Assembly (NCBI GenBank): GCA_052327205.1
Contig: CM126204.1
Location: 302,312,001 to 302,376,000, forward strand
DNA from: Somniosus microcephalus
Lineage: Eukaryota
DNA: 64,000 nucleotides
Direction: 5' to 3'
Below, one piece after another: positions 7,862 to 44,355 of the stretch. The first letter of the stretch is position 1, and each line of letters starts with the position of its first letter. A program made the position numbers and the translations under genes. The notes below the pieces were generated by a model, which had not been told where the DNA came from, made no database searches, and saw only the letters and a list, made by a program, of their open reading frames with translations.

Positions 7862-8712
7862 TCTATATATATAAATGAATCGATCTGTCTGTCTGTCTGT
7901 CCTTCTGTCCTCGGGTGTGCGTCTGTCCAGCTATGCGCTCGAAAGTTATAGAGCGTACCTACGCGCGCGTTACCTCCAAAGAAAGCTTACGGTTCCGGAA
8001 CGGTCGTAAGCGTATTTACTTTTCGGTCGGACGAAAATTGTTGGCGCCTTATGCAAAATACCTTCAAAATTAAACTCATTATCTGCTACTTAGCATTGAT
8101 TGACTGACGTCAAGGTTCGACCAATCCTGTGCCGTCACGATTGACCAGTCCTACAGTACAGTCCCCTGATGGTTGGCCAATCGGTGTGTGTGTGTGGGCG
8201 GGACTAATCGTTTTCATCTCAGGGATGTGGCAGCCATTGCCTCAAGCTAAAAACACCATTTACTTCCAGCTCAAAATCTGCTGATGCAGCTTCGAAAAAG
8301 TTAGTATCTCTTATGTTATTTTTAAAAGATTTACCAAAAACGTTTTATAAGTACTTTCACTTTCATCTTTGAAGGTATTAAAAGGTAGAAATGTTGCCCG
8401 GCAGCAGATTCACAAAGGGACAGACAGACAGGGCCTGAAAGCCTGGTACTCAATTTAAAATGTTGCCCAGCAGCAGATTGAGAGAGGGACACAGAGACAG
8501 GGTCCAAAAGCCTGGGACTCGATTTAAACCGCCCAGCCCGGCAGCAGATTCACAGAGGGACAGACAGACAGGGCCCGAAAGCCTGGGACTCCATTTAAAA
8601 TGTTGCCTGGCACCAGATTCACAGAGGGACACAGAGAGGCCCCAAAGCCTGGCACTCGATTTAAACCGCCCGGCCCAAAACAGCCCTGGCAAAGCCGGGC
8701 TCCCCCAGCTAG
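7862..8712 (+). mobile_element. Non-autonomous Helitron
   Basis: Inserted between A and T with no TSD. 5' end is TCTATATATATAAA followed by a (TCTG)n tract. Subterminal hairpin gccctggcaaagccgggc (8683-8700) lies 12 nt before the end of the terminal CTAG (8709-8712; alternative CTAG at 8715-8718). Confidence 0.85.
8389..8676 (+). repeat. Four ~69-71 bp tandem units arranged as a 140-bp A-B dimer inside the Helitron
   Basis: gca(g/c)cagatt anchors at 8401, 8470, 8541 and 8610. Units 1 and 3 end in tttaaaatgttgcc; units 2 and 4 end in tttaaaccgccc. Confidence 0.9.
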
Positions 8713-16499: not shown

Positions 16500-17388
16500 C
16501 CACTAACTCTCTCGACCCCTCCACTGTCTCTAAATTGTCAGACTGCTTGTCCGGCATCCAGTACTGGATGAGCAGAAATATTCTCCAACTAAATATTGGG
16601 AAGACTGAAGCCATTGTCTTTGGTCCCCGCCACAAACTCTGTTCCCTAGCCACCGACTCCATCCCTCTCCCTGGCAATGGTCTGAGGCTGAACCAGACTG
16701 TTTGCTACCTTAGTATCGTATTTGACCCTGAGATGAGCTACCGACGACATATCCGCGTCATCACTAAGACCGCCTACTTCCACCTCTAACATCGCCCAAC
16801 TCCACCCCTGCCTCAGCTCATCTGCTGCTGAAATCCTCATCCATGCCTTTGTTACCTCTAGACTTGACTATTCCAACGCAATCCTGGCCGATCTTCCATC
16901 TTCCATAAACTTATCTCATCTAAAACTCTGCTGCCTGTATCCTAACTTGCACCAAGTCCCATTCACCCATCACCCCTGTGCTCACAGACCTACTCTGGCT
17001 CCCGGTTAAGCTACGCCTCAATTTTAAAATTCTCATCCTTGTTTTCAAATCCCCTCCATGGTCTCGCCCCTCCCTATCTTTGTAACCTCCTCCAGCCCTA
17101 CAACCCTCTGAGATATCTGCACTTCTCCAATTCTGGCCTCTTGTGCATCCTCGATTTTAATTGCTCCACCATTGGTGGACATGCATTCAGCTGCCGAGTC
17201 ACTAAGCTCTGGAATTCCTTCCCTAAACCTCTCAGACTCTCCACCTCTCTATTCTCCTTTAGGACGCTCCTTAATACCTGCCCTAATATCTCCTTATGTG
17301 GCTAGCTGTCAAACTTTAACGCTCCTGTGAAGCACCTTGGGACATTGTACTACATTCAAGGTGCTATATAAATGCAAGTTGTTGTTGT
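16500..17388 (+). mobile_element. 5'-truncated L2 LINE (ORF2 C-terminal part plus 3' tail)
   Basis: Translates to LSDCLSGIQYWMSRNILQLNIGKTEAIVFG...HAFVTSRLDYSNAILA...KLWNSFP with stops and frameshifts; ends in gctatataaatgcaa(gtt)n. Confidence 0.9.
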
Positions 17389-17973
17389 AAACACTTTTAT
17401 TCATGTAAATAAAGTCCTATGCCCATATTCCTCAGCTGGATTTTAATTGTACAATTTGTTCTGTGCCTCACTGGCCTCTGCAGCAGTCCTGCATTTCGGG
17501 TGCATTTTTACTGCAAAGCCATTAGTGGAACTTTGTTCTTCATGCCTCTACAGAGGAATCATCATCTTCCAGCTTTTCTGCAGTAACCCCTAAGGCTATA
17601 ACCATTTGAAGAGGACAGTAACCAGATAACAATGAGACATTAAGTCCTTTGGTCAGGAGGAACCAGCTGCTGCCACAGAAGATGTGCCACCCAAGGGAAC
17701 ACAGTCCATACTGTGCTTATTGAGTGGTGGGAAGACTCCACTTGTTGCTGGATCCACCACAGGGCCTTCTTTGGGCCGCAGCATACAAACCAAAGGGTCT
17801 GCATCGATATTCTAGGGCAAATGACAGCTGCACAAACAGATGTTGTCCCTTCCATATCACCACCATTAGCGAAGTCTGCTAAAGGAAGGTATGCATCTGC
17901 TGAATCAACCCATTAGCAATGTCCATGTTGGTGTGCATACTGATGTGGCCACATTGTATAGTATTATGCAACC

Positions 17974-18375
17974 TTTTATTAATTAATTCCTGGGATGTGG
18001 GTGTTGCTGGCAAGGCCAGCATTTATTACCCATCCCTAATTACCCTTGAGAAGGTGGTGGTGAGCTGCCTTTTACAACTGAGTGGCTTGCTAGGCCATTT
18101 CAGAGGGCAGTTAAGAGTCAACCACATTGCTGTGGATCTGGAGCCACATATAGGCCAGACCAGGTAAGGATGGCAGATTTCCTTCCCTAAAGGACCAGAT
18201 GGGTTTTTACGACAATCCGGTAGTTTCATGGTCACTGTTACTGATACTAGTTTTTTATTCCAGATTTATTTAATTAACTGAATTTAAATTCTCCAGCTGT
18301 GATTTGAACTCAGGATCACAAGTCCAGGCTTCTGGATTACTAGTCCAGTAACATAACCACTAGGCTACCATACCC
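17974..18375 (-). mobile_element. tRNA-derived SINE made of the 5' head/body plus 3' tail of the LINE at 40554-43470
   Basis: Minus strand carries A box TAGCCTAGTGG, anticodon arm CTGGA-CTAGTAA-TCCAG and B box GTTCAAATC. 18073-18375 aligns to 43158-43470, and 17985-18070 aligns to about 40563-40650. Confidence 0.9.
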
Positions 18376-20049
18376 AGGGCTGGGCACATTTGGCAGAGCA
18401 CATCAGCTTTTCACTGGCAAAATCAGCAACTCTCCTTCACTTTTCTGCAAGACATTGCCACTCAGTGCTCTGTCAGACCATCTAAAGATATTCCTATTCT
18501 GGGACCTTTTACCATTTCTTGTGTCGCTGAAATGGCCTGTTTCAGAGCACCAGCCTGTGGAGGATCCTTCCATTGCCTAGTCCTCCCAAAACTTAGCTGC
18601 CAGTATATTGTAAATAATTGTAAATAGAACAAAGTTACTGTACTAACTTTTAATAAATTATGTGTAAAACTTGCATTGATACAATATTATTATTTTAATA
18701 TGGCACATATTGTTTAGTAGTAAACCGGATATTTGCACATAACAGGCACCTGTAACTTTTAAAATTATTATCTTTTAATTTTACACTTGAGTTGCACTGA
18801 CGATAACTACTCTGAGTATATATTGTATACTTTGTTGATATTCACGTGTATATTTTCTAGTTTTTGAAGTAAAATGTACACCCCCCACCCCACCCCACCA
18901 TACCATGCCAACTTTTCATTCACAGTTTATATATGGATGGGAAGCTTTAGCACTCTCTTGAGTGTGACTAACAGTTTCTGTCTTTTTCAGTCATCTGCAG
19001 TGATCTTTCTATCTGGGTTCATGGTATAATTAAATATATTCACATAGGGGACATCTTTACTTATAAAGAAATACTCACTCCACCTGTGTCTAGTGTGTAT
19101 TCAGCATAATGCTGCATATAATGCGAAACAAAGAGGACTTTTATGTTTTACAGTACAGTACAAGGGAAACACTCATTTTTACTGACATATCCTGAATGAT
19201 GTTAAAACAAAAACTTAAGCTGTACTGTATTTCTTCTGCAGCCATTGATGTTTTAATCCGCTGATATAAGATCGCCGTCATGTTAAATTAAATCATTGTT
19301 AGAGTTTGCAAACTGGCATAAATAGCGCTCAAAGTAGCCTTAACTTAGACCACCATTTGCAACATTGCAAAAGGCTGGTGTAAGTACCCCCATTCCATTT
19401 TCTTTACATTGAATGCATGCCACACCAATGCTGCTTTAGCAGGTAAGGGTTAAGTTCCACATTTGACTAAAGAGAATGTTGATGGAGATTATGTAGAGAT
19501 GTCTGAAGACTTGACCTGCCGCTTTTGCACAAGAGGAATGTAAGCATGGGTGATGGGAGGGGGGAGAAGGGTGGGGAAGAGGAATTTAATTACAAAAAAG
19601 TTTTATGTCGGCCAGTTCTGTTTTTCCAGAAGTTTTGTGTGTTGTTTTTTAGTTGTGGTTCTTTAATCGATAATTTAATAGCCTGACAGGATTTGGAGTT
19701 TGCAGAATTAAAGTCTGATCTCATTATGCTCCCAAATCCCTGTTGTTGCTTTTTGAATATGGCTCCCTGTTCAGGCCTTCAAAATCTCCACCGCTTTTCG
19801 TTCATACAATATAAGTTAACGAAAGCAATTTTCTTTGAATAATAATTTTTTATTATCACATTGCATATTTTTGAACTTTGACATGGAAATGTAACCATTT
19901 CTTAAAAGTTATTAAAACAGCTAATGACTGCAAGTGTGATGACATTACTGGAATTCTTTCTGCATCTGACCTTAGGGAATGTTGCACTATTGCTGAAAGG
20001 TCGCTTGCAATGTATATAAGGGCTTCAGTGAAAGTTTATCTTTTTTTAA

Positions 20050-20854: not shown

Positions 20855-21807
20855 ATGGCAGAGCAGCTTGTGTGTCTAGACTGCAGTATGTGGGAGTTTG
20901 TGGACAGCGAGATGGCCTGGGCAACCACATCTGCAGTAGATGTCTCTGTCTTGAATCTCTCCTGCTCAGAGTCATTGAGCTGGAGTGCGAATTGGAGACA
21001 GTCTGTCACATAAGGGAGGGGGAGCAGTATCTGGACTGTTTTCTCCAGACCTCGGTCACATCTTTTAGAGAGATACAGGTTCAGAACGGGGTTGGTGTGA
21101 CCAGTAGTGTGCAGAGCAAGGGGAACCCAGGTGAGATAGAGAATGAGGATCAGCAGAAACTGATCCTATTCAACAAGTAAAATGTACTTGCTACCTGTGA
21201 GGATAAGGATAAAGACTATTGGAAGGACAGCCAGAATGTGGACCATGGCACCGTGGAGCAGGAGGCTGTCCAAAGGGTGGAGGAGGAGGAGGAGGGGTAG
21301 TGTAATGTGGTAGTTGTAGAGGATTAAGTAATTAAGGGGACAGATAACATCCTTTGTAAGCAAGATCGCGAGTTATGTTGCCTACCTGGAGCCAGGCTGA
21401 GGGACCTCTCGAACCGGCTTGAAAGGATTTTGGAGAGGGAGGGGGGGGAGGATCCCGTCGTTGTGGTCCATGTTGGGACCAACAACATAGGGAAGAGTAG
21501 GCAAGAGGTCCTGTTTGGGGAGTACCAGGAACTAGGAGCTAAATTAAAGAACAGGATCTCAAGGGTTATAATCTCTGGATTATTACCTGAGCCACGTGCA
21601 AATTGCCATAGGGATAAGAAGATTAGGGAGGTGAACACGTGGCTGAAGGAGTGGTGTGGGCAAGAGTGGTTCCATTTCATCGGGCACTGGCACCAGTATT
21701 GGGACAGGAAGGAACTGTACCATTGGGACGGGTTCCACCTGAACCGGGCTGGGAATAGAGTCCTAGCGGAAAGGATAAATAGGACGGTCACAAGGACTTT
21801 AAACTAG
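20855..21807 (+). pseudogene. CR1 ORF1 (zinc-finger/leucine zipper plus SGNH esterase), disrupted
   Basis: MAEQLVCLDCSMWE..., CSRCLCLESLLLRVIELECELE, CCLPGAR, VVVVHVGTNNIG, IISGLLP, WDGFHLNRAG; frameshifts and stops present. Confidence 0.9.
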
Positions 21808-22019
21808 TAAATGGGGGGGGGGGGCTTAGGTGGAAAATGTAGAATAAATAATAGTTCAAAAACAAATGAAATGGAAGAGAGTAGAGTAACAGAAATTGTG
21901 CTTTAGGCAGTACAGGTAAGGGGAAAACTAAAAGGTGTAAAGTGATTAAACCAGGAGAGAGAAATAAGAAACATGTGAGTAAAACATTAGAGCTGAAGAA
22001 CAGGTTAGGGTGTGTGGCC

Positions 22020-25000
22020 CAAATAAGCATTCTTTATACAAACGCACGGAATAAATTGAATGAACTGCAGGCGCAAATTCAACTTGGAGGGTATGACATG
22101 ATAGCCATTACTGAGACATAGCTGCAAGATGGTCAGGACTGGGAACTAAATATACTAGATTAAAAGGCCTACAGGAAAGATGGGGAAAATGGCAGAGGGG
22201 GAAGAGTAGCCTTAGTGATTAAGGATGAAATCACTTCCATGATAAGAGAGGATATAACGAAGGGTAAGCAGGCAAGGGAGACTTTATGGGTAGAATTAAG
22301 AAATAGGAAAGGATTTAAGACTGTAGTGGTAGCAGCTGTGAAGTGCTAGATTGTATAAGTGCAGAGATTAGACAAGCATGTAGTAAAGGCAGAGTAGTTT
22401 TAATGGGGGATTTTAACTTTCATATAGATTGGGATAAGCAGATTAGTACATGTCAGAAAAGTAGTGAATTTCTTGAGTGTGTCCGAGATAGTTTTCCACA
22501 ACAGTATGTCCTAGAACCAACAAGGGGACATGACATATAAGATTTAGTAATGAGCTAGATTTAGTTAATAGCCTAATGGTGCATAAACTTTTATCTAATA
22601 GCGATCATAACATGATCGAGTTCAACGTAGTGTTTGAAAGGGAGAAATGTGAAACAGCTACAGGTACACTATCCTTTATCCGCACTTCCGAAAACCTCTA
22701 AAAACCGAAAGTTTTTTCGTGGAGCGTAAGTCGTGCACACGACATGACCCGAGTGGCGCCAAACATGACGGGAGTGGTCCGGAAGCTCTGCCTTTCCCTG
22801 TGAGCAGGGCAGAGGGTCACAGAGTTCCCTCCTGGGTAGGAGATTGCAGGCCGAGCCGGGCAGCGTGAAGGAGGTACCGGGAGAGTGAACCCAACAATAC
22901 AGCGGCCCGTCCGATAGCTGCAGCAGCCCGTCCGATAGTCTTTCCTTCCCCCCCCCCCCCCCAACCTGATTTGCGGGCCAGCTTAGTGTAGGAGTCAGCC
23001 GATATCCGGCTTTCCCACAACTGGCGGCGGCAGTCGAGCCCCAGACCCCCGCTAAGTCAAGGAATTCAGATACGGAGCAGGGGGAGCCGGAAACCTCGAT
23101 CTAACGGCAGAAATCAGCAGCCGTTTTGTTAGGTTTTTTTGTTCCCCTAGCATTTTTTTTCTTCCCCTAGCATTTTTTTAAACAGTCAGGCTGTGGAAAG
23201 AGTCTCTGTAGCTTAGCAACAGCTTCAGAGACTCTTCCAAGGCAGGGCCCGAGTGTTTACAAGCTGTTGTTAAGCAACAGTGTTTGTTGTCAGATACGGA
23301 GATGAAAACCTTCTAAAATCCGAAAAATTCCGAAAACCGAAACACAGCTGGTCCCAAGGTTTTCGGATAAAGGATAGTCTACCTGTACTAAGATTCTAGA
23401 TTTAGGTCAGGCTGACTTCAATGCGATGAGACAGACTGTCCACAGTAAATTGGGCAAATCTGTTAATGGGTAAAATGACAAGATCAGTGGGAGCGGTTCA
23501 AAAAAGAATTTGTGATACAGAAGCAGTTTATACCCCTAAGGGGCAAGAGCTCTACTTGCCCCCAAAATAGCCATGGATGACGAAAGAGGTAAGAGATGAC
23601 ATAAAACTAAAAGAAAAAGCATACAAAACTGCAAAAAATAGCGCAGATCCTGGCGAATGGGAAAGATACAAAGAATAGCAAAGGGTCACAAAACAGATAG
23701 TAAGAGCTACACAAAGGGAGTATGTAAAGAAACTTGCAAGGGATATTAAAACCAACACAAATTTTTACAATTACATTAGGAAAAAGAGGGTAGTCAGGAG
23801 CAATGTTGGCCCCTTAAACTGCTAGCAGTGATTTTGTCAATGATAATAAGGAAATGTTGAATAATTACTTGGTGTCAGTATTTACAGTAGAGGAAGAGGG
23901 TAGTATGCCGGAAATCCCAAGGAAACTAGTATCGAATCTGGGACAGGGACTCAACAAAATTAACGTATGTAAAATAACATTAATGAAGAAAATAATGGCA
24001 CTAAAGAGTGACAAATCCCCAGGACCAGATGGTTTTAAAGGAAGTAGGTGAGCACATTGCTGATGCCCTAACTATAATCTTCCAAAGTTCTCTGGATTCA
24101 GGAACCATTCCGTTAGATTGGAAAATTGTGCATGTCACTCTGCTTTTTAAGGATGGTGAGAGAGGGAAACCAGGGAATTATAGACCAGTTAGCCTAGCAT
24201 CTGTTGTCGGGAAATTACTGGAGTCTATAATTAAGGATAGGTTGACTGAACACCTTGAAAATTTTCAGCTGATCAGAGAGCCAGCATAGATTTGTTAAAG
24301 GTAGGTCATACCTGATGAATCTGATTAATTTTTTGAAGAGGTGACTAAAGTAGTGGACAGGGGAATGTCTATGGATGTTATTTATATGGACTTTCAGACA
24401 GTATTTGATAAAGTCCCCCCTAAGAGACTGTTAACTAAGGTTGAAACCCATGGAATTGAGGGCAAATTATTGACCTGGTTAGGAAATTGGCTGAGCGGCA
24501 GGAGACAGAGAGTAGGGATAATGGGCAGGTACTCTAATTGGCAGGATGTGTCTAGTGGTGTCCCGCAGGGATCTGTGTTGGGGCCTCAACTATTCATCAT
24601 ATTTATTAATGACTTAGATGATGGCATAGAAAGATGACACAAAGATAGGCGTTATTGTAAGCAGTGTAGATGAAAGCATAAAATTAAAAAGAGATATTGA
24701 TAGATTAAGTGAATGTCAAAACTGAGGCAAATGTAGGCAAATGTGAGGTCATCCACTTTGGACCTAAAAAGAATAGAACAGGGTACTTCCTAAATGGTGA
24801 AAAGCTAAAAACAGTGGATGTCCAAAGAGACCTGGGGGTTCACGTACATAGATCATTAAAATGTCATGAACAGATATAGAAAATAATCAAAAAGGTTAAT
24901 GGAATGCTGGCCTTTATATCTAGAGGACTAGAATACAAGGAGGTAGAAGCTACAGTGCAGCTATACAAAGCCATCGTTAGACCATACCTGGAATACTGTG

Positions 25001-25445
25001 AGCAGTTATGGGCACCACATCTTGGGAAGAATATATTGGCCTTGCAGGGAGTGCAGCATAGGTTTACCAGAATGATACCCGGAGTCCAGGAGTTAAATTA
25101 CAAGGAGAGATTGTACAAACTAGGGTTGTATTCCCTGGAATTTTGAAGGCCATGGGGGTGATCTGATCGAAGTTTTCAAGCTATTAAGGGGAACAAATAG
25201 GGTAGATAGAGAGAAACTATTTCTGCTGGTTGGGGAATCTAGGACGAGGGGACATAGTCTAAAAATTTGAGCCAGACCTTTCAGGAGTGAAATTAGGAAA
25301 AACTTCTATACACAAAGGGTGGTAGAAGTTTGGAACTTTCTTCAGCAAACAGCAACTGATGCTAGATCAATTGTTAATTTTAAATCGGAGATTGATAGAT
25401 TTTTGTTAAACAAAGGTATTAAGGGATATGGGGCAAAGGCGAGTA
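22020..25445 (+). pseudogene. CR1 ORF2 (APE endonuclease plus reverse transcriptase), disrupted
   Basis: [65 protein letters not shown] small deletion near 24633 truncates the FADD motif. Many stops. Confidence 0.92.
22661..23385. mobile_element. Tc1/mariner pogo/Tigger-type (MER46/Tigger4-like) non-autonomous element inserted in CR1 ORF2
   Basis: TIRs caggtacactatcctttatccg / cggataaaggatagtctacctg (21/22 match) and TA TSD (22659-60, 23386-87). Removing it restores the CR1 frame ETATKILDLGQADF. Confidence 0.92.
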
Positions 25446-25746
25446 AGAACATAAGAATTAGGAGCAGGAGTAGGCCAGGCGGCCCTCGAGCCTGCTCTGC
25501 CATTCAATAAGATCATGGCTGATCTTCGACCTCAACTCCACTTTCCCGCCCGATCTCCCTATCCCTTGAGTCCAAAAACCTACCTATCTTGGCCTTGAAT
25601 ATACCCAACGACTGAGCATCCACAGAACTTCCGGATAGAGAATTCCAAAAACCTATCTATCTTGGCCTTGAATATACCCAACGACTGAGCATCCACAGAG
25701 CTTCCGGATCGAGAATTCCAAAGATTCACAACCCACTGAGTGAAGA
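25444..25746 (-). mobile_element. Second CR1 3' fragment inserted antisense into the 3'UTR of the first CR1
   Basis: taagaacataagaattaggagcaggagtaggcc...gatcatggctgatct is the reverse complement of a CR1 3' end. Confidence 0.85.
25571..25716. repeat. 73-bp tandem duplication within the antisense CR1 fragment
   Basis: tccaaaaaccta...gagaat occurs at 25571-25643 and 25644-25716, bounded by tccaaa microhomology. Confidence 0.9.
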
Positions 25747-27849
25747 GAGCAAAGAGTAAAGTTGCAGATCAGCCATGATCTCATTGAATGGTAGAAGAGG
25801 CTCGAGAGGCTAACTGGCCTACTACTCCTCCTATGTCCCTATATCTGCTCGGACAGTCACAGTTTATATAGTGCCTGATTGTAAAATATTTTTATAGACA
25901 CTAGAAGAGCAGTTGATGTATAGATGCTGCATATAATTTCAAATATGAAATATTGGCTGGATTTAAAATAAAACTTTCAACTAGCAATGATGGGTGACTC
26001 TGTTGACATGCCATCATATCTCATACCTTTATGTTTTGAAACAAAAAGGACATATGGTGGCCTTCTGTTGTGGAGTTTCATTCTTGTGCATTTCCATTTT
26101 GCTTTTGAGTTTTAATTATTAATGATATATTTGCATAGTTTTTTTCAAGCTATTTTAAAAACAAATTTCTATCATCCTTTATCACATTGTGGCAATATAC
26201 CGTGTGATAGGTGATATTTCATCAAAAAAGAAGAGGACCAGGCCTCCTTCCACTAGCCAGAACAAAAGGGACACAACAGTTATAAATATTGCTGAATTGT
26301 TTACGAGCTATTTGGACAGAAAATAAAAGGAACTGAACACATTACACTGGACAGCTGCAGCGGTCTGTGGGGAAAGTTGGTACAGATGGTAGAAAAAGTG
26401 GTAAAATAAACTGCCTTATGGCTGCTAAATAAAAAAAAGAGAATGAGGTTTGTCGATCGAACGTAAGAAATTTGTTCCCCTGAGGGAGTTTCAATACTCA
26501 TTGGGCCAAATTAAGGAGAATATTACAGATGACAACAATCCTGTTGATTTTCTTTTTTTTTTAAAAAACAGAAAGCTGGATATTTATTAGTTAATATTTC
26601 TTCAAAAAAATGATGTACAAAACACTATGGTAATAGTTTCCTAATGAGGGTTACAATCATAATTTACACTTGGCTTTTTTTTAAGTGAGTGTATGTGTGT
26701 GAGAGAGAGAAAGACAGAGAGAGCAAGAAGTGGAGCTGATTCTAATGAGCACCTGCTTTTTTTATGCAGAGTATATAATGCCAAAGTTCTAGGTCCTGTA
26801 TAGATGCATAGCCCCGTTTTAAAAGGACATTTCCTCTTTCATTTGTCTACATAGGTTCAAGTGTGAAACTGAACAGTCAAACTTTGCCACTGTGCTTTTA
26901 CCTATTTGGACCTGTAATTAATTATCTTTTAAAGTGTTCTGTATCTGGGCGAAAAGTACCACTGAATAGTAGCCACTGTTGTGATAATTTGCAGCATATT
27001 TGCCACTATGTTTTCAGGTGGGAGAGCGTGGGCTGTGCTATTGTACCATTGCAATATCCTAGTACGGAGAAGAGAGGGAAGCTCGGACTGTTTGAGAGAT
27101 TGCAAGCATGTGGCATTATAAAAATACTATTTAAAAGATGTGATTCACTGTATTAAAAATAAATTAATGTGAGTAAAAATAATGTGGTAGTACCTCAGGT
27201 CATTCATCATCATCCTTTGCATATTGTAAAATCAATTTACCTTCAGGTCCTGTATCACACAACATTTTTGATAGGCAATGTGCAGGCATCTTAGTAAAGC
27301 TTAAACATTTGCAAAGAAAATTCACTGCCATATGTCTATTATACATAGTAATAGGGAACTCCAGGTAAATTTTAAAACAATCTAATATCGGGGTTCAGAT
27401 GACAAACAGGGACCACTTGTAGACTTTATGATGTCATCTCAATGTCCTCAATTAGATTAATGCTTTCTAATTCACAAATAAACCTGTCTAGTTACCAACT
27501 GCTCTGCACTTAGGTCCTTCTGGAGTGATGCTTTTACCACCGGTGCAGTAGGTTTTTAGTCTTAATCTAGAGTGTTTTGGAAATCTGAGTGACAGATAGA
27601 TGTTTTGGACTCATTCCAAAAAAAGTGCTTACTTTTTTCATACCTCTTCCCCGCCACCCCACCCCACTCAATTCCTAGGGTTAACTTCAAGACTACTTGT
27701 AAATTTTGCACTGATTTTCATTGATTAATAGGGCTACAAATCTAAAACTCACTCTTACTTACATTTCTTCTTCCCCCAATCCTTCACCTGCAGCCTCCTC
27801 AACAGGTGCAACAACCCAGCTGATCTGTGAGTTAGCCAGTATTGAGCTT

Positions 27850-37570: not shown

Positions 37571-37950
37571 GCCAGCTTGGTTCAGTGGTAGCACTTTGAT
37601 CTCTTGAGTCAGAAGGACATGGGTTCAAGCACCACTCTAGGATATGAGCACATAATCTAGGCCACACTTCTGTGTAGTACTGAGGAAATAATGCATTAGC
37701 AGAAGTACTATTTCTTGGATGAGATTTTAAAACATGCCTTGTATGCCTACTCAGATGAGCATAAAAGTTCCCATGGCACTATTTGAAGAAGAGCAGGGCA
37801 GTTCTCCCCATGTCCTGGCCAACATTCATCCCTTAACGAATGGCACCAAAAAAACAGCTTAACTGCTATTTGTGCGATCTTGCTGTGCACAAATTGGCTG
37901 CCGCATGTGTCTATGTAACAACAGTGACTACACTTCAAAACAGTTCATTT
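37571..37950 (+). mobile_element. Deu-domain (SacSINE1-like) tRNA SINE, near full length
   Basis: A-box-like tggttcagtggtagc, B-box-like ggttcaagcacc, core aaaagttcccatggcactatttgaagaagagcaggg, and 3' acaacagtgactacacttcaaaa. Confidence 0.8.
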
Positions 37951-40616
37951 AAATAATAGGAAGGGGGTCATTTAAATAATAGTGGAAGGTGCCCACACCT
38001 GTACCACACAACAGGGGTGCCTGATGGAAGCAGTGTGACCTTAGAGTGGCACCCTGCTGTAGTGAGAGGGGGAGTCAGAAGCGGGTTGGGTCTGAAGATT
38101 GAGGTGGGACAACATTCTTAATTTATTTAATATTGAAGGAAGGGCCATTATGATAATTGAATCCTCGGTGATCAATTCCGTTTGGATTTGTCACCAGGGA
38201 GCTTCAGTAGGTCCAAAATAGAACCTATGTCTGCTGATGTAGGTTCCACTGCACCACTTGGGTGTATCTAGCAGGATTCCTGGAAGAACCCCAACACTCC
38301 CCCAAACTGCTGTTGGGATGTAGGGGGATGAGCAATAAAAGTATATGCCCTGCCACCATTCTGGGATTTTTTGTACAGTTTAAATGGGGTAGAAACGTGA
38401 CATATCTGGATTCCTTCCCCCCCCACCCCCCCACAAAATTTAAGTCCTCTCCCCTGCCATAACTCTAGCAGAATTTTGCCCTCCCACACCCATGGGATGT
38501 GATTTTTAGGATTTGCTGACCACTTTCTATTTTAGAAATTTATGGACAGCTGTTACAATGCAAAACTGTATGGGCAGAAACCCTACGGTTTGTGTATCCA
38601 TACATATGTTGGGTAGTCCTTCCCCCCAGTGCACTATAATGTGATAAGGCAATTGGCTTATTTTCTGGCTGAAGTTGGATGGCTTGTGACAATTTCCATT
38701 ATGGAGTGGCAGAGATGCACTACTGTGCACAGGCATTTAGCAAAGTCCCATCTTTTAATTCCCCTGTTGGTCTCAGAAAAGACCGAAGTTTGATGAAGTA
38801 ATTAAAATGGCTGGGATGTCAAATATTGAAATTAGCTCGTTTCCAATCTTGGTGAAAGACATTGCAAGTTGACAGATTTTTAACAATTGGCTCAGTGGTT
38901 GCCGCAGACTGGTTGAAAATAACACAATTTTTGAAGAAAGCCTTGATGGAAAGAACAGGTTAATTGAGAACCAGCAAGCTTCCAGTTACTGGCTTAACCC
39001 CAATATCAGTGTTTTTTTTATTCCTTGTCCTCCTTTGGTTTTGCAGTCATCGCTGGTCAGACCTGATGTACAGCATTGAGTGAAAGTTTCTTCAGCCCCT
39101 TGCCTCATTTGCATATGAATCTCTATTCAACAGTTAATGTCCGTTACAGACAGAGCGCTCAATTCTTGTTTTCTGTAAGCCTGTTGTAAAATGTCGGTCT
39201 GTCACTTGCAATATAAAAAAGCAAAAATGATGGCATTTGTAAAAATGTTATCACCTCATAAACACAAATTGTAAAGACATGAAAGCGATCTCTGCCATGC
39301 TTTCAGTGGGAGTTAGTACAGCTGCCTTTTTTAAAAACACAGTTGTCCAGATTCCCACAGCTCACTACCAATAGACCAGTTTACACAAGCATATTTAATT
39401 CAGAGTTCCCCAAATTAACATTTAATTTGCATAATATGTGACACTCTATACAACATAGACTTGCCCAGGAATTTAAATCCGTTGCATCTTTCTTCAAAAT
39501 GCTCCAGAAACTTCAGTAATTAACTTCAAATTGATCCCTTTTTGTCTTTCCAAATAAAATTAAGCCACGGTTAACATATATTCATCTAATTAATAAAAGA
39601 TTTGTTATTAAGACCCCGTTAACCGCCATTCACAAAAGTCAAGAATTAGTTGCTACAAACTTTGTTCATCGTATATATAAGTGCTCAAAGATGTAAATGC
39701 TGTGTTTTGTATATGGTGTTATACAACAGTCATCAGTGCCGGAATCTGGGTCAAAGGTCAAGCATTGTAGCAATTTTGTTAAAGTTGTGCGGAATAGTTT
39801 TGTTAGGTCCAGAAACTACTCAGTCTGGTGTACTGGATTTGGTTTATTAAAATGAAACACATTATGGTAGGCACATCACGCCCACCCCCTCCCCCCAATT
39901 TCTCTTGTGATTTCCCAAGCCCACCAGACCGGGCCATCTGAGGAATTGCCAATTGTGTGAAGACGCTTCTTCAAAAAGAGGAAGGATTGACAGGTGAGTC
40001 AGCATGTGCCGCTGTTCCACACCTGCAGGCACCTGGATGGACAGCAACACCCGGACAGGTCACATGTTACATGCTATTAGTCGTGAAGGTGTAATGTGGC
40101 ACAGGACAACATACAGATTGAAGAAAATAACTTTCAAACGGGGTAAAAAGTCTCTTGGGAATAAAATACAGTAAATAATCATGGGAGACTTTGAGAGACA
40201 ATTTACCTGTGTGGAATTGTATAGATTGTGACTCAGACCTGACGTGTCAAGGCCATTGATGAGAATCCCCAAAATTAGGACAATCCAAATGGTAAGGAAG
40301 ATATAGCTTTTATTAACCATCTGGTTGATGCCAGATCAGAATCTTAATGACTGACTTAGTCTTCTGGTGAGTGTTCGGGTGAATTTTGTTTAATTTCAGC
40401 TGGGTGCCATTGGAACTCCAAAGCCCCTATTTTAACCTGGAGCTGGAATCGGGGGTGGAGGCCGAGTGCCAACCCCCCTGGCCTTGGCAGCATTACGCCC
40501 AGGTGATTTTAACTCCCACATTTCAACTGCATGCCTTCTGTCAGTTTCCTGCCTTTTTTTTTATTCGTTCCTGGGTTGTGGGTGTCGCTGGCAAGGCCAG
40601 CATTTATTGCCCATCC

Positions 40617-43183
40617 CTAATTGCCCTTGAGAAGGCGGTGGTGAGCCGCCACCTTGAACCGCTGCAGTCCGCGTGGTGAAGGTACCCCCACAGTGCTGTT
40701 AGGGGGTGAGTTACAGGATTTTGACCCAACGACGATGAAGGAACGGCAATATATTTCCAAGTCAGGATGGGGTTTAACTTGGAGGGGAACCTGAAGGTGA
40801 TGGTTCTCCCATGCGCCTGCTGCCCTTGTCCTTTTAGGTGGTTGAGGTTGAGGGTTTGGAGGTGCTGACGAAGAAGCCTTGGCGAGTTGCTGTAGTGCAT
40901 CTTGTAGATGGTACACACTACAGCCATGGTGCAGCGGTGGTGGAGGGAGTGAATGTTTAAGGTGGTGGATGGAGTGCCAATCAAGCGGGCTGCTTTGTCC
41001 TGGATGGTGTTGAGCTTCTTGAGTTTTGTTGGAGCTGCACTCATCCAGGCAAGTGGAGAGTATTCCACAACACTCCATACTTGTCCCCTGTAGATCGTGG
41101 AAAGGCTTTGGGTAGTCAGGAGGTGAGACACTCGCCACAGAATACTCAGCCTCTGACCTGCTCTTGTAGCCACAGTATTTATGTGGCTGGTTCAGTTAAG
41201 TTTCTGGTCAATGGTAACTCCCAGGATGTTGATGGTGGGGGATTCGGCAGTGGTAATGCCATTGAATGTCAAGGGGTGGTGGTTAGACTCTCGCTTGTTC
41301 GGAGATAGTCATTGCTTGGCACTTTTGTGGCGAGAATGTTACTTGCTACTTACCAGCCCAAGCCTGAATGTCTTCCAGGTCTTGCTGCATTCGGACATGG
41401 ACTGCTTCATTATCTAAGGAGTTGCAAATGGAACTGAATACTGCAATCGTCAGCGAACATCCCCACTTCTGACCTTATGATGGAGGGAAGGTCATTGATG
41501 AAGCAGCTGAAGATGGTTGGGCCTAGGACACTGCCCTGGGGAACTCCTGCAGCGATGTCCTGAGGCTGAGATGATTGATCTCCAACAAATACAACCATCT
41601 TCCTTTGTGCTAGGTATGACTCCAGCCAGTGTAGTTTTCCCCCTGATTCCCATTGACTTCAATTTTACTAGGGCTCCTTGATGCCACACTTGGCCAAATG
41701 CTGCCTTGATGTCAAGGGCAGTCGCTCTCACCGCACTTCTGGAATTCAGCTCTTTTGTCCATGTTTGGACTAAGGCTGTAATGAGGTCTGGAGCCGAGTG
41801 GTCCTGGCAGAACTCAAACTGAGCATCGGTGAGCAGGTAATTGGTGAGTAAGTGCCGCTTGATAGCACTGTCGACGACACCCTCCATCGCTTTGCTGATG
41901 ATTGAGAGTAGGCTGATGGGGCGGTAATTGGCCGGATTGGATTTGTCCTGCTTTTTGTGGACAGGACATACCTGGGCAGTTTTCCACATTGTCGGATAGA
42001 TGCCAGTAATGTAGCTGTACTGGAACAGCTTGGCTAGAGGTGCGGCTAGTTCTGGAGCACAAGTCTTCAGCACGACAGCCGGGATGTTGTCGGGGCCCAT
42101 AGCCTTTGCTGTATCCAGTGCGCTCAGCCATTTCTTGATGTCACGTGGAGTGAATCGAATTGGCTGAAGACTGGCTTCTGTGATGGTGGGGACCTCAGGA
42201 GGAGACCGATATGGATCATCCACATGACACTTCTGGCTGAAGATGGTTGCAAATGCTTCAGCCTTGTCTTTTGCACTCGCGAGCTGGGCTCCATCATCAT
42301 TGAGGATGGGGATATTCATGGAGCCTCCGTTAGTTGTTTAATTGTCCACCACCATTCACGACTGGATGTGGCAGGACTGCAGAGCTTTGATCTGATCTGT
42401 TGATTGTGGGATCGCTTAGCCCTGTCTATAGCATGGTGCTTCCGCTGATTAGCATGCCTGTAGTCCTGTGTTGCAGAGTACCCAGGTTGGCACCTCATTT
42501 GTAGGTACGTCTGGTGCTGCTCCTGGCATGCTCTTCTGCACTCCATTGAACCAGGGTTGGTCCCCTGGCTTGATGGTAATGGTAGAGTGAGGGATATGCT
42601 GGGCCATGAGGTCACAGATTGTGGTGGAATACAATTCTGCTGATAGCCCACAGCAGATGCCCAGTTTTGAGCTGCTAGATCTGTTCTGAATCTATCCCAT
42701 TTAGCACGGTGGTAGTGCCACACAACACGATGGAGGGTGTCCTCAGTCTGAAGACGTGATTTCGTCTCCACTAGGACTGTGCAGACCTGAAGTCATGAGA
42801 CTTCATGGGGTCCGGAATCAACGTTGAGGACCCGCAGGGCCACTCCCTCCCGACTGTATACCACTGTGCCGCTACCTCTGGTGGGTCTGTCCTGCCGGTG
42901 GGACAGGACATACCCAGGGATGGTGATGGAGGAATTTGGGGCATTGGCTGAAAGGTATGATTCTGTGAGTATGACTATGTCAGGCTAGTCAGTGGGACAG
43001 CTCTCCCAATTTTGGCACACGCCCCCAGATGTTAGTGAGGAGGACTTTGCAGGGTCGACTGGGCTGGGTGTGCTGTTGTCTTATCCGAAGCCAGTGCCGA
43101 GGTCGATGCTGGGTGGTCCGTCCGGTTTTATTCTTATTGTTTTTCGTAGTGGTTGTGTACAACTGAGTGGCTTGCTAGGACAT
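40617..43183 (-). pseudogene. LINE EN-RT ORF, disrupted, with the central endonuclease deleted
   Basis: KVLLTNIWG, PDIVILTESYL, IPGYVLSHRQDRPTRGSGTVVY, then a deletion at ~42783, then [75 protein letters not shown]. Confidence 0.9.
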
Positions 43184-43384
43184 TTCAGAGGGCAGTTAAG
43201 AGTCAACCACATTGCTCTGGGTCTGGAGTCACATATAGGCCAGACCAGGTAAGGTTGGCAGATTTCCTTCCCTAACTGACATTAGTGAACCAGAATCCGA
43301 TAGTTTCATGGTCACCATTACTGATACTAGCTTTTTAATTCCAGATTCATTTAATTAACTAAATTTAAATTCCACAGCTGCCGT

Positions 43385-43470
43385 GGTGGGATTTGAACTG
43401 ACGTCTCCGGATTATTAGGCCAGGCCTCTGGATTACTAGTCCAGTAACATCACCACTATGCTACCGTTCC
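43385..43470 (-). promoter_or_regulatory. tRNA-derived internal Pol III promoter at the LINE 5' end
   Basis: A box TAGCATAGTGG (43463-43453), perfect 5-bp anticodon stem with 7-nt loop CTGGA-CTAGTAA-TCCAG (43444-43428), B box GTTCAAATCCC (43398-43388). Confidence 0.8.
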
Positions 43471-44029
43471 TCACCCAGGCCACTGATTAAAATAGCCATC
43501 GGGGCCCGATGATGTCATCAGACTCCCAACCTGCATATCTATTGAAGGAACGCACTGGATTCGGGCGGGCATCCTTGCCACCTGCTCAGAGATGAGGTTA
43601 AAATTGAAGGCAATGGGAACGGAGCAGGATGTCAGCGGATAAGTCTCCCGGGTGGGTAGGGCTAAAATTGCCCCTCAAGTACAGTGGAGAGACTGATCAG
43701 CCTCACTTGTTGCACAATTAGCAGATCATTTGGTAAGAAATCCTGAGTTGTTAGCAATACATGTCATGCGAAGGCCATTGCCATTGTCATGTGTGAAGAT
43801 TTGCGAAGTGGGGTCAGAGTGGGAAACAAAACAATATTTCTGTCTCTAATCTGGAGTTAGAGGGTGCAGCCTGGAGCATATGGCTAGAGATGAATAGTCA
43901 GATAAGGTAACTCTGTATGACATGCTGATCGGAAGTGAAGTCAGACTGCGGTAGCTTGGAATGCACACTGAATTTTAACTGCATGTAAAATTTTTGGAAA
44001 AAATATATGCACATGGATGGTAGTAGAGA

Positions 44030-44355
44030 AAGAAAGTTTTCATTCATGTAATGTCTTATTCCATAGTGTTTCCCAGCCAATTAATCACTTTTGAAATACA
44101 GTCACCGTTGTTATGTAGGCAAACACAGCAGACAATTTGTGCACAGCAAGGTCCCACAAACAGTAAATGAGATGAATGATCAGTTAATCTGTATTAGGTG
44201 GTGCTGATTGAGAGAGGAGCATTGACCAGGATACTGGAAAACTCATTGCTCTACTTTTATTAATGCCACAGGATTTTTTATGTCCACCTGAACAGACAGT
44301 CGAAGCATCAGTTTAATTTTTCATTTGAAAGACAGCACCTCCAACGGTGCAGTGA
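44030..44355 (-). mobile_element. Deu-domain (SacSINE1-like) SINE, diverged
   Basis: Reverse complement matches 37690-37945 (cttgctgtgcacaaattg, acaacggtgact...tcaaaa). Confidence 0.75.

Follow-up and report, generated by a model that had tools for sequence, protein, structure and literature searches.

The short element on the minus strand of the window (the whole 64,000-nucleotide stretch of DNA analysed here) is probably a bipartite internal-deletion derivative (SIDE) of an elasmobranch Zenon LINE that also has the structure of a SINE, from a parent that would have given rise to such forms by repeated deletion, with some amplification of the products. The Zenon 5′ UTR, made up of a tRNA-Thr-like head with A and B boxes and a body, is joined to the end of the Zenon ORF, the 3′ hairpin and the A tail. 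The Zenon parent family and Zenon deletion derivatives are already in print; what appears to be new is that the parent carries a SINE-type head, so that what its deletion leaves behind is structurally a SINE. The features of the two elements are as follows.

About 17974-18378, minus strand: whole short element, about 400 bp, structural SINE
18295-18378, minus strand: tRNA-Thr(AGT)-like head of the short element, A box 18367-18357, B box 18310-18301 (ARAGORN, Rfam and box pattern)
18073-18294, minus strand: body of the short element, homologue of the Zenon 5′ UTR, with Squalus-type subfamily indels (BLASTN and by-eye consensus comparison)
18070-18072, minus strand: junction, three A residues that separate the 5′ block from the 3′ block, class 40650->43158
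17974-18069, minus strand: tail of the short element, with the Zenon ORF's final 10 codons and stop, the 3′ UTR hairpin and an A-rich end
40555-43477, minus strand: whole long element, a decayed elasmobranch Zenon LINE copy without sense TTTT
43158-43477, minus strand: 5′ block of the long element, tRNA-like head and body, nearly the entire 5′ UTR, A box 43463-43453, B box 43399-43390
40617-43157, minus strand: LINE-specific short leader and decayed APE-RT ORF of the long element (RVT_1 E 2.7e-12), no ORF1
40555-40650, minus strand: 3′ block of the long element, with poly(A) at its end, also present in the short element

BLASTN within the 64-kb window aligned two blocks of the short element to the long one, 18073-18369 with 43158-43465 (262 of 313 columns, 84%, E 5e-93) and 17974-18069 with 40555-40650 (86 of 96 columns, 90%, E 3e-32), and returned no further copies of either element. 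This bears out the reading in an earlier note, made from the sequence alone, of a LINE 5′ block joined to the 3′ block of the same LINE, and the letters at the junction read as given there, with three bases (18070-18072) that align cleanly to neither block. The same note held that the whole ORF was missing; nearly all of it is, but its final 10 codons plus the stop survive in the tail (frame 1). The short element thus consists of a single LINE's 5′ and 3′ ends with the middle missing, as in SIDEs or bipartite LINEs, and is non-coding, about 400 bp long and has its 3′ tail in common with a partner LINE (90% over 96 bases). Divergence was alike in both blocks (29 of 292 aligned bases, 9.9%, and 8 of 85, 9.4%). 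Private deletions in each copy within the shared block show that neither copy was the direct template for the other. A target-site duplication was looked for next to the ends of both elements and not found; the short copy is old. The same hairpin was predicted in the tail of both elements, at a z of −1.35 against shuffles that is not significant, and none of head, body or tail folded better than shuffles.

The long element has no ORF1, a single APE-RT ORF and a poly(A) tail, in agreement with the definition of Zenon, within the CR1 group, by the absence of ORF1 and a poly(A) tail in the relevant text of Stuart et al. (2026; PMC13343379), and its 5′ end matches the published Zenon consensuses by eye. 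The ORF is decayed by stops, frameshifts and an internal loss in the endonuclease; at about 42790 (minus strand), where that part is lost, alignments to relatives skip from residue ~75-98 to ~209. A quick RT tree of 45 of the 120 listed proteins joined the long element with lepidopteran proteins in a group of 29 rows (SH-aLRT 95), apart from the CR1-like copy in the window; the rows of that group carry no Zenon label. The closest named protein matches (63–87% identity) were LINE fragments within shark and ray gene models, followed at ~40–46% by mostly unnamed proteins, many of ~940 aa and a few from Lepidoptera. Seven named shark gene models (P0001, P0010, P0011, P0027, P0031, P0032, P0033) contain Zenon ORF fragments; models of this kind include aldo-keto reductase, anoctamin-7, GPR139 and others, and probably reflect misannotation of a repeat that had not been masked. 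A set of 80 related LINE loci was distant (27–42% identity in the best RT segment), and head or body DNA found no convincing match in them (5 matches of 19-24 bases).

Vertebrate Zenons are given in the relevant text of PMC13343379 as occurring only in elasmobranchs, coelacanth and hagfish, and those of elasmobranchs as absent from repeat repositories. Over the first 400 bases of each, all seven elasmobranch consensuses of that study, from five species (CarCar, HypSab, RhiTyp, ScyCan and SquAca_Zenon-1 to -3), start with the same head and body, and in all seven these run through one junction into LINE sequence. As far as the source describes them (PMC13343379), they resemble the long element in lacking ORF1, in their poly(A) and in their length of ~3 kb, and the long element is nearest to the SquAca consensuses among the elasmobranch Zenons. 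A second genomic copy also crosses the long-form junction (X1 record 8, 42948-43254). The presence of head and body in 7/7 consensuses indicates that long forms with the tRNA head make up a genuine family, common to sharks and a ray, and are not a local chimera. In most elasmobranch consensuses an ATG stands ~20-30 bases past the shared block (by eye), so head and body make up almost the whole 5′ UTR; the window copy reads ATA at this place (43120-43135, minus strand). The two hagfish consensuses and the one from coelacanth, as published in PMC13343379, have 5′ ends without head or body, that of the coelacanth being of low confidence.

At the start of both elements stands a decayed tRNA-like sequence whose anticodon loop is intact and reads AGT (Thr). 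ARAGORN detected it at the relaxed setting -ps80, with a call of tRNA-Thr(agt) in the head of the short element, and gave nothing at -ps90. At the ARAGORN default, or at the Rfam gathering score of 29, no tRNA was called; the Rfam tRNA model scored 21.9 bits (E 0.04) on the short-element head and 17 bits (E 0.98) on that of the long element. A pattern of A and B boxes adjusted to these heads matched only the two of them on both strands of the 64 kb, and matched 0/36 regions upstream of related LINEs, a weak result for a pattern fitted to the two heads. The head of the short element, though decayed, is thus of the SINE2 kind, tRNA-derived with A and B boxes. Since other Zenons lack the head, and the 36 distant relatives the A/B pattern upstream, Zenon must have acquired it at some point, possibly from an older SINE as a one-time donor or from a tRNA gene. 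The word “tRNA” occurs 0 times and “SINE” once, in a reference, in the main text of PMC13343379, and “tRNA” 0 times in its searchable supplement.

With a library that included head and body, Zenon masking covered 0.7–6.8% of seven elasmobranch genomes, 0.018% (179 kb) of the chimaera genome and 0.0018% (47,839 bp) of that of sockeye salmon (O. nerka). The 179 kb masked in the chimaera is more than in most other non-carriers and may be an older relative. From these sequence comparisons, head and body appear to be nearly absent outside elasmobranchs. Body motifs had no matches in viral, prokaryote and metagenome contigs, as expected for a shark repeat, and six of them had 0 matches in the hagfish SINE supplements, giving no link to the UCON3, Deu and Meta SINEs listed there.

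Contigs from 4 of 24 listed runs, representing four coded organisms, were placed on the long element. All figures for joints refer to the 15 listed of 6520 joint rows, most of them without letters between the two sides and drawn from fragmented contigs; the contigs carry neither transcript starts nor strand, and contig counts per class are lower bounds. In seven of the 15 listed joints one side lies in the 5′ block (43158-43189) and the other in the 3′ block (40619-40679). All four runs contain four of these joints; of the remaining three, two were seen in three of the runs and the last as a single contig. The commonest class, 40627->43158, was found in at least 34, 16, 20 and 7 contigs per run, 40619->43158 in at least 9, 9, 8 and 1, and 40649->43181 in at least 6, 2, 16 and 3. 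The class of the window, 40650->43158, was found in at least 6, 4, 5 and 3 contigs; X1 is possibly the sample of the window itself, and contigs may include orthologues of the short-element locus. The earlier note had put forward, as a check, whether short copies have one junction in common; the window's class recurs in four runs, but the short copies fall into several breakpoint classes and not one. By eye, the two main 3′ breakpoints lie at TCAA words (40657-40654 and 40630-40627), and a CAA follows the 5′ block in all seven published elasmobranch consensuses (first 400 bases of each); words of this kind at the breaks fit microhomology, and a single microhomology fits either direction of descent. 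Contig depth rises over head and tail, a measure unable to rank the parts. In run X14, 514 loose ends at 43158 run on past the body into sequence like a diverged Zenon leader and an A run (by eye), possibly from another subfamily or a further short form.

Descent from LINE to SINE is favoured because the long form has a uniform junction and the short forms varied ones, because both blocks are equally diverged and because the short copy carries Squalus-type subfamily indels. These indels are common to the short copy and the three Squalus consensuses and absent from the first 400 bases of the other four (by eye, for one short copy). The contrast in masking between elasmobranchs (0.7–6.8%) and chimaera or sockeye salmon points the same way. 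The earlier note had named an older, more widespread short form together with heterogeneous long junctions as the pattern that would reverse the direction; the opposite was seen, with one 5′ junction in 7/7 long consensuses and several short junctions, and the masking of the seven elasmobranchs, chimaera and sockeye salmon gave no sign of an older or wider short form. Repeated internal deletion is favoured because it is known for the Zenon of Lepidoptera, whose deletion derivatives (Persaeus) are described in the relevant passages of PMC6740152 as having formed repeatedly at short direct repeats or microhomologies. The wider claim that head, body and tail all come from one autonomous parent is supported by both blocks and by the seven consensuses but is not proven.

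By this route, the Zenon reverse transcriptase would change template at short common words (CAA/TCAA), or microhomology repair would act later. The deletion product would retain a Pol III promoter and a tail recognised by the Zenon enzyme, and could be transcribed and copied in trans with no need to acquire a head. Some junction classes would then have been amplified, and the short copy in the window would derive from a family master and not from the neighbouring long copy. Going by contig counts only, the short RNA may have been amplified independently.

An origin in the other direction is much less likely and would start from an old SINE of tRNA-Thr type that had a Zenon tail. Zenon would have taken its head and body from this SINE by template switching, the present short copies would descend from the SINE, and recurrent exchange with Zenon would have kept the short line alike. 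Such a history also predicts the 5′ break at 43158 that several classes have in common, which counts against descent from LINE to SINE. It further fits the headless 5′ ends of hagfish and coelacanth and the 0/36 upstream regions with the A/B pattern, by which the head was added, the absence of tRNA homology in the lepidopteran Zenon derivatives, as described in PMC6740152, and the module exchange reported as common among SINEs in passages of PMC4824008 and PMC5499810. Against it stand the several differing 3′ and 5′ breakpoints, a short copy that tracks a LINE subfamily, the equal divergence of the two blocks and the lack of an abundant homologue beyond elasmobranchs. A weaker version, with the head donated a single time by an older SINE and today's short forms produced by deletion, is compatible with the deletion of headed Zenon copies preferred here.

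Slightly less likely again is that the short forms are recurrent accidents, Zenon insertions whose middle was lost, during or after reverse transcription, at hot spots of microhomology and which were never recopied. The heterogeneous junctions, the modest contig counts (at least 3-34 per class per run) and the failure to find a target-site duplication would all suit such accidents, as would the letters at the window's junction, which are unlike those of another member of the same class. However, end-to-end joins dominate the best-supported joints, the other eight of the 15 listed being single contigs from one run each, the contig counts are minimum values, and copying would be possible with promoter and tail intact. 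Reverse transcription of a spliced Zenon RNA is very improbable: the 3′ breakpoint has an AG close by and the 5′ breakpoint a GT, but the GTA that such a donor site would remove is still in the short copy, and GT..AG ends occur in no sense-strand joint among the 15 listed of 6520.

The nearest known counterpart of the short element is Persaeus, the SIDE of lepidopteran Zenon, which in the description in PMC6740152 likewise keeps the 5′ and 3′ Zenon ends, the ORF's end and poly(A), measures 260-390 bp and has repeated origins with breaks at microhomology. Persaeus is described there as without tRNA homology or Pol III promoter, whereas the short element inherits A and B boxes. Bov-tA, AfroSINE, SINE2_Gav and SINE2-1_EC, bipartite derivatives of RTE or Vingi (passages of PMC5786205 and PMC7245038), have a tRNA head followed by 5′ and 3′ LINE parts, as here, but in these the head was joined second to a deleted LINE and the LINE is headless, whereas the shark LINE is already headed. 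RTE-1_DAn and relatives are LINEs said in PMC5786205 to hold tRNA-like sequence, as Zenon does here; they belong to the RTE clade, and the passage gives no position, function or derived SINE. Neither the tRNA-type head nor the short derivative of the published elasmobranch Zenons is described in the main text and searchable supplement of PMC13343379, and we found no description of either in the open-access literature; a name in Repbase, Dfam or SINEBase may exist.

The shark SINEs SacSINE1 (Deu) and HE1 (V), and SlmI, which is abundant in salmonids, all compared by description, have a tRNA head, a body and a LINE-type tail like the short element. The partner of HE1 is HER1, where that of the short element is Zenon. 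The resemblance to SlmI that the earlier note suggested did not hold up: SlmI has a tRNA-Leu head and an RSg-1 tail (relevant passage of PMC3747384), whereas the short element, compared with it by description, has a Thr(AGT)-like head and a Zenon tail, and only 47,839 bp of O. nerka were masked. A Deu/SacSINE1 label was dropped, again on comparison by description: the tail is Zenon and not L2-type, and the chimaera, with 179 kb masked here, has 218,294 copies of SacSINE1 with its L2-2_CM-like tail (relevant passage of PMC5499810). A bivalve motif for part of Deu had 0 matches in the short element at 3 mismatches, a weak test, as had one bivalve motif each for V and Meta, and no likeness to the V/Meta SINE alignments was seen by eye. 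MetaSINE heads are tRNA-Thr-like, as is that of the short element.

Sense-strand TTTT was considered in both elements. The short element lacks it, as the earlier note stated, yet this means little, with 1.3 runs expected in 400 bp and 208 of 2544 400-bp segments also free of it. The first sense TTTT lies ~950 bases past its tail (17026-17974, minus strand), so a Pol III transcript from the short-element locus would be long. The long copy has 0 sense TTTT in 2906 bases (4.5 expected) and 15 AAAA runs, and lies within a TTTT-free stretch of 3218 bases, the longest that the window has on either strand (the next is 1393). The CR1-like copy of the window, taken as a control, has 19 TTTT runs against 9.4 expected, and none of 64 scored ORF stretches of at least 1 kb, from the 80 related loci, is TTTT-free. 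For this one long copy the deficit has a P of 0.011 in base, 0.067 in dinucleotide and 0.44 in trinucleotide shuffles. As a sign of Pol III transcription the deficit is suggestive only. We therefore offer tentatively, and as rather unlikely in its full form, the broader proposal that elasmobranch Zenon is an autonomous coding LINE whose entire 5′ UTR is a tRNA-type promoter, that it is transcribed by Pol III and has an ORF purged of TTTT terminators, and that each of its end-to-end deletions would be a complete SINE from the outset.

The CR1-like copy, a second LINE at 21328-25140 (plus strand), comprises a GDSL esterase ORF1 piece and RT pieces. The window also holds tandem arrays at 8389-8665 (69 bp, four units) and 25571-25722 (73 bp, two units) and two inverted repeat pairs, 25459-25525 with 25766-25833 (85%) and 37866-37940 with 44089-44163 (80%), the latter flanking the long element at a distance.

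In the usual model a SINE is a mosaic, a small-RNA head and LINE-derived parts joined in separate steps. Here the autonomous LINE is already headed, and a single deletion yields head, body and tail. The route from LINE to SINE becomes testable by trees of individual copies from shark genomes, in which several independent births would serve as replicates. The repeat covers 0.7–6.8% of elasmobranch genomes, and masking would label its short forms as LINE. If the Pol III reading is true, the LINE must translate an uncapped RNA, and LINEs would have a one-step, repeated route to SINEs. The element raises the question of whether a coding retrotransposon can be driven by Pol III.
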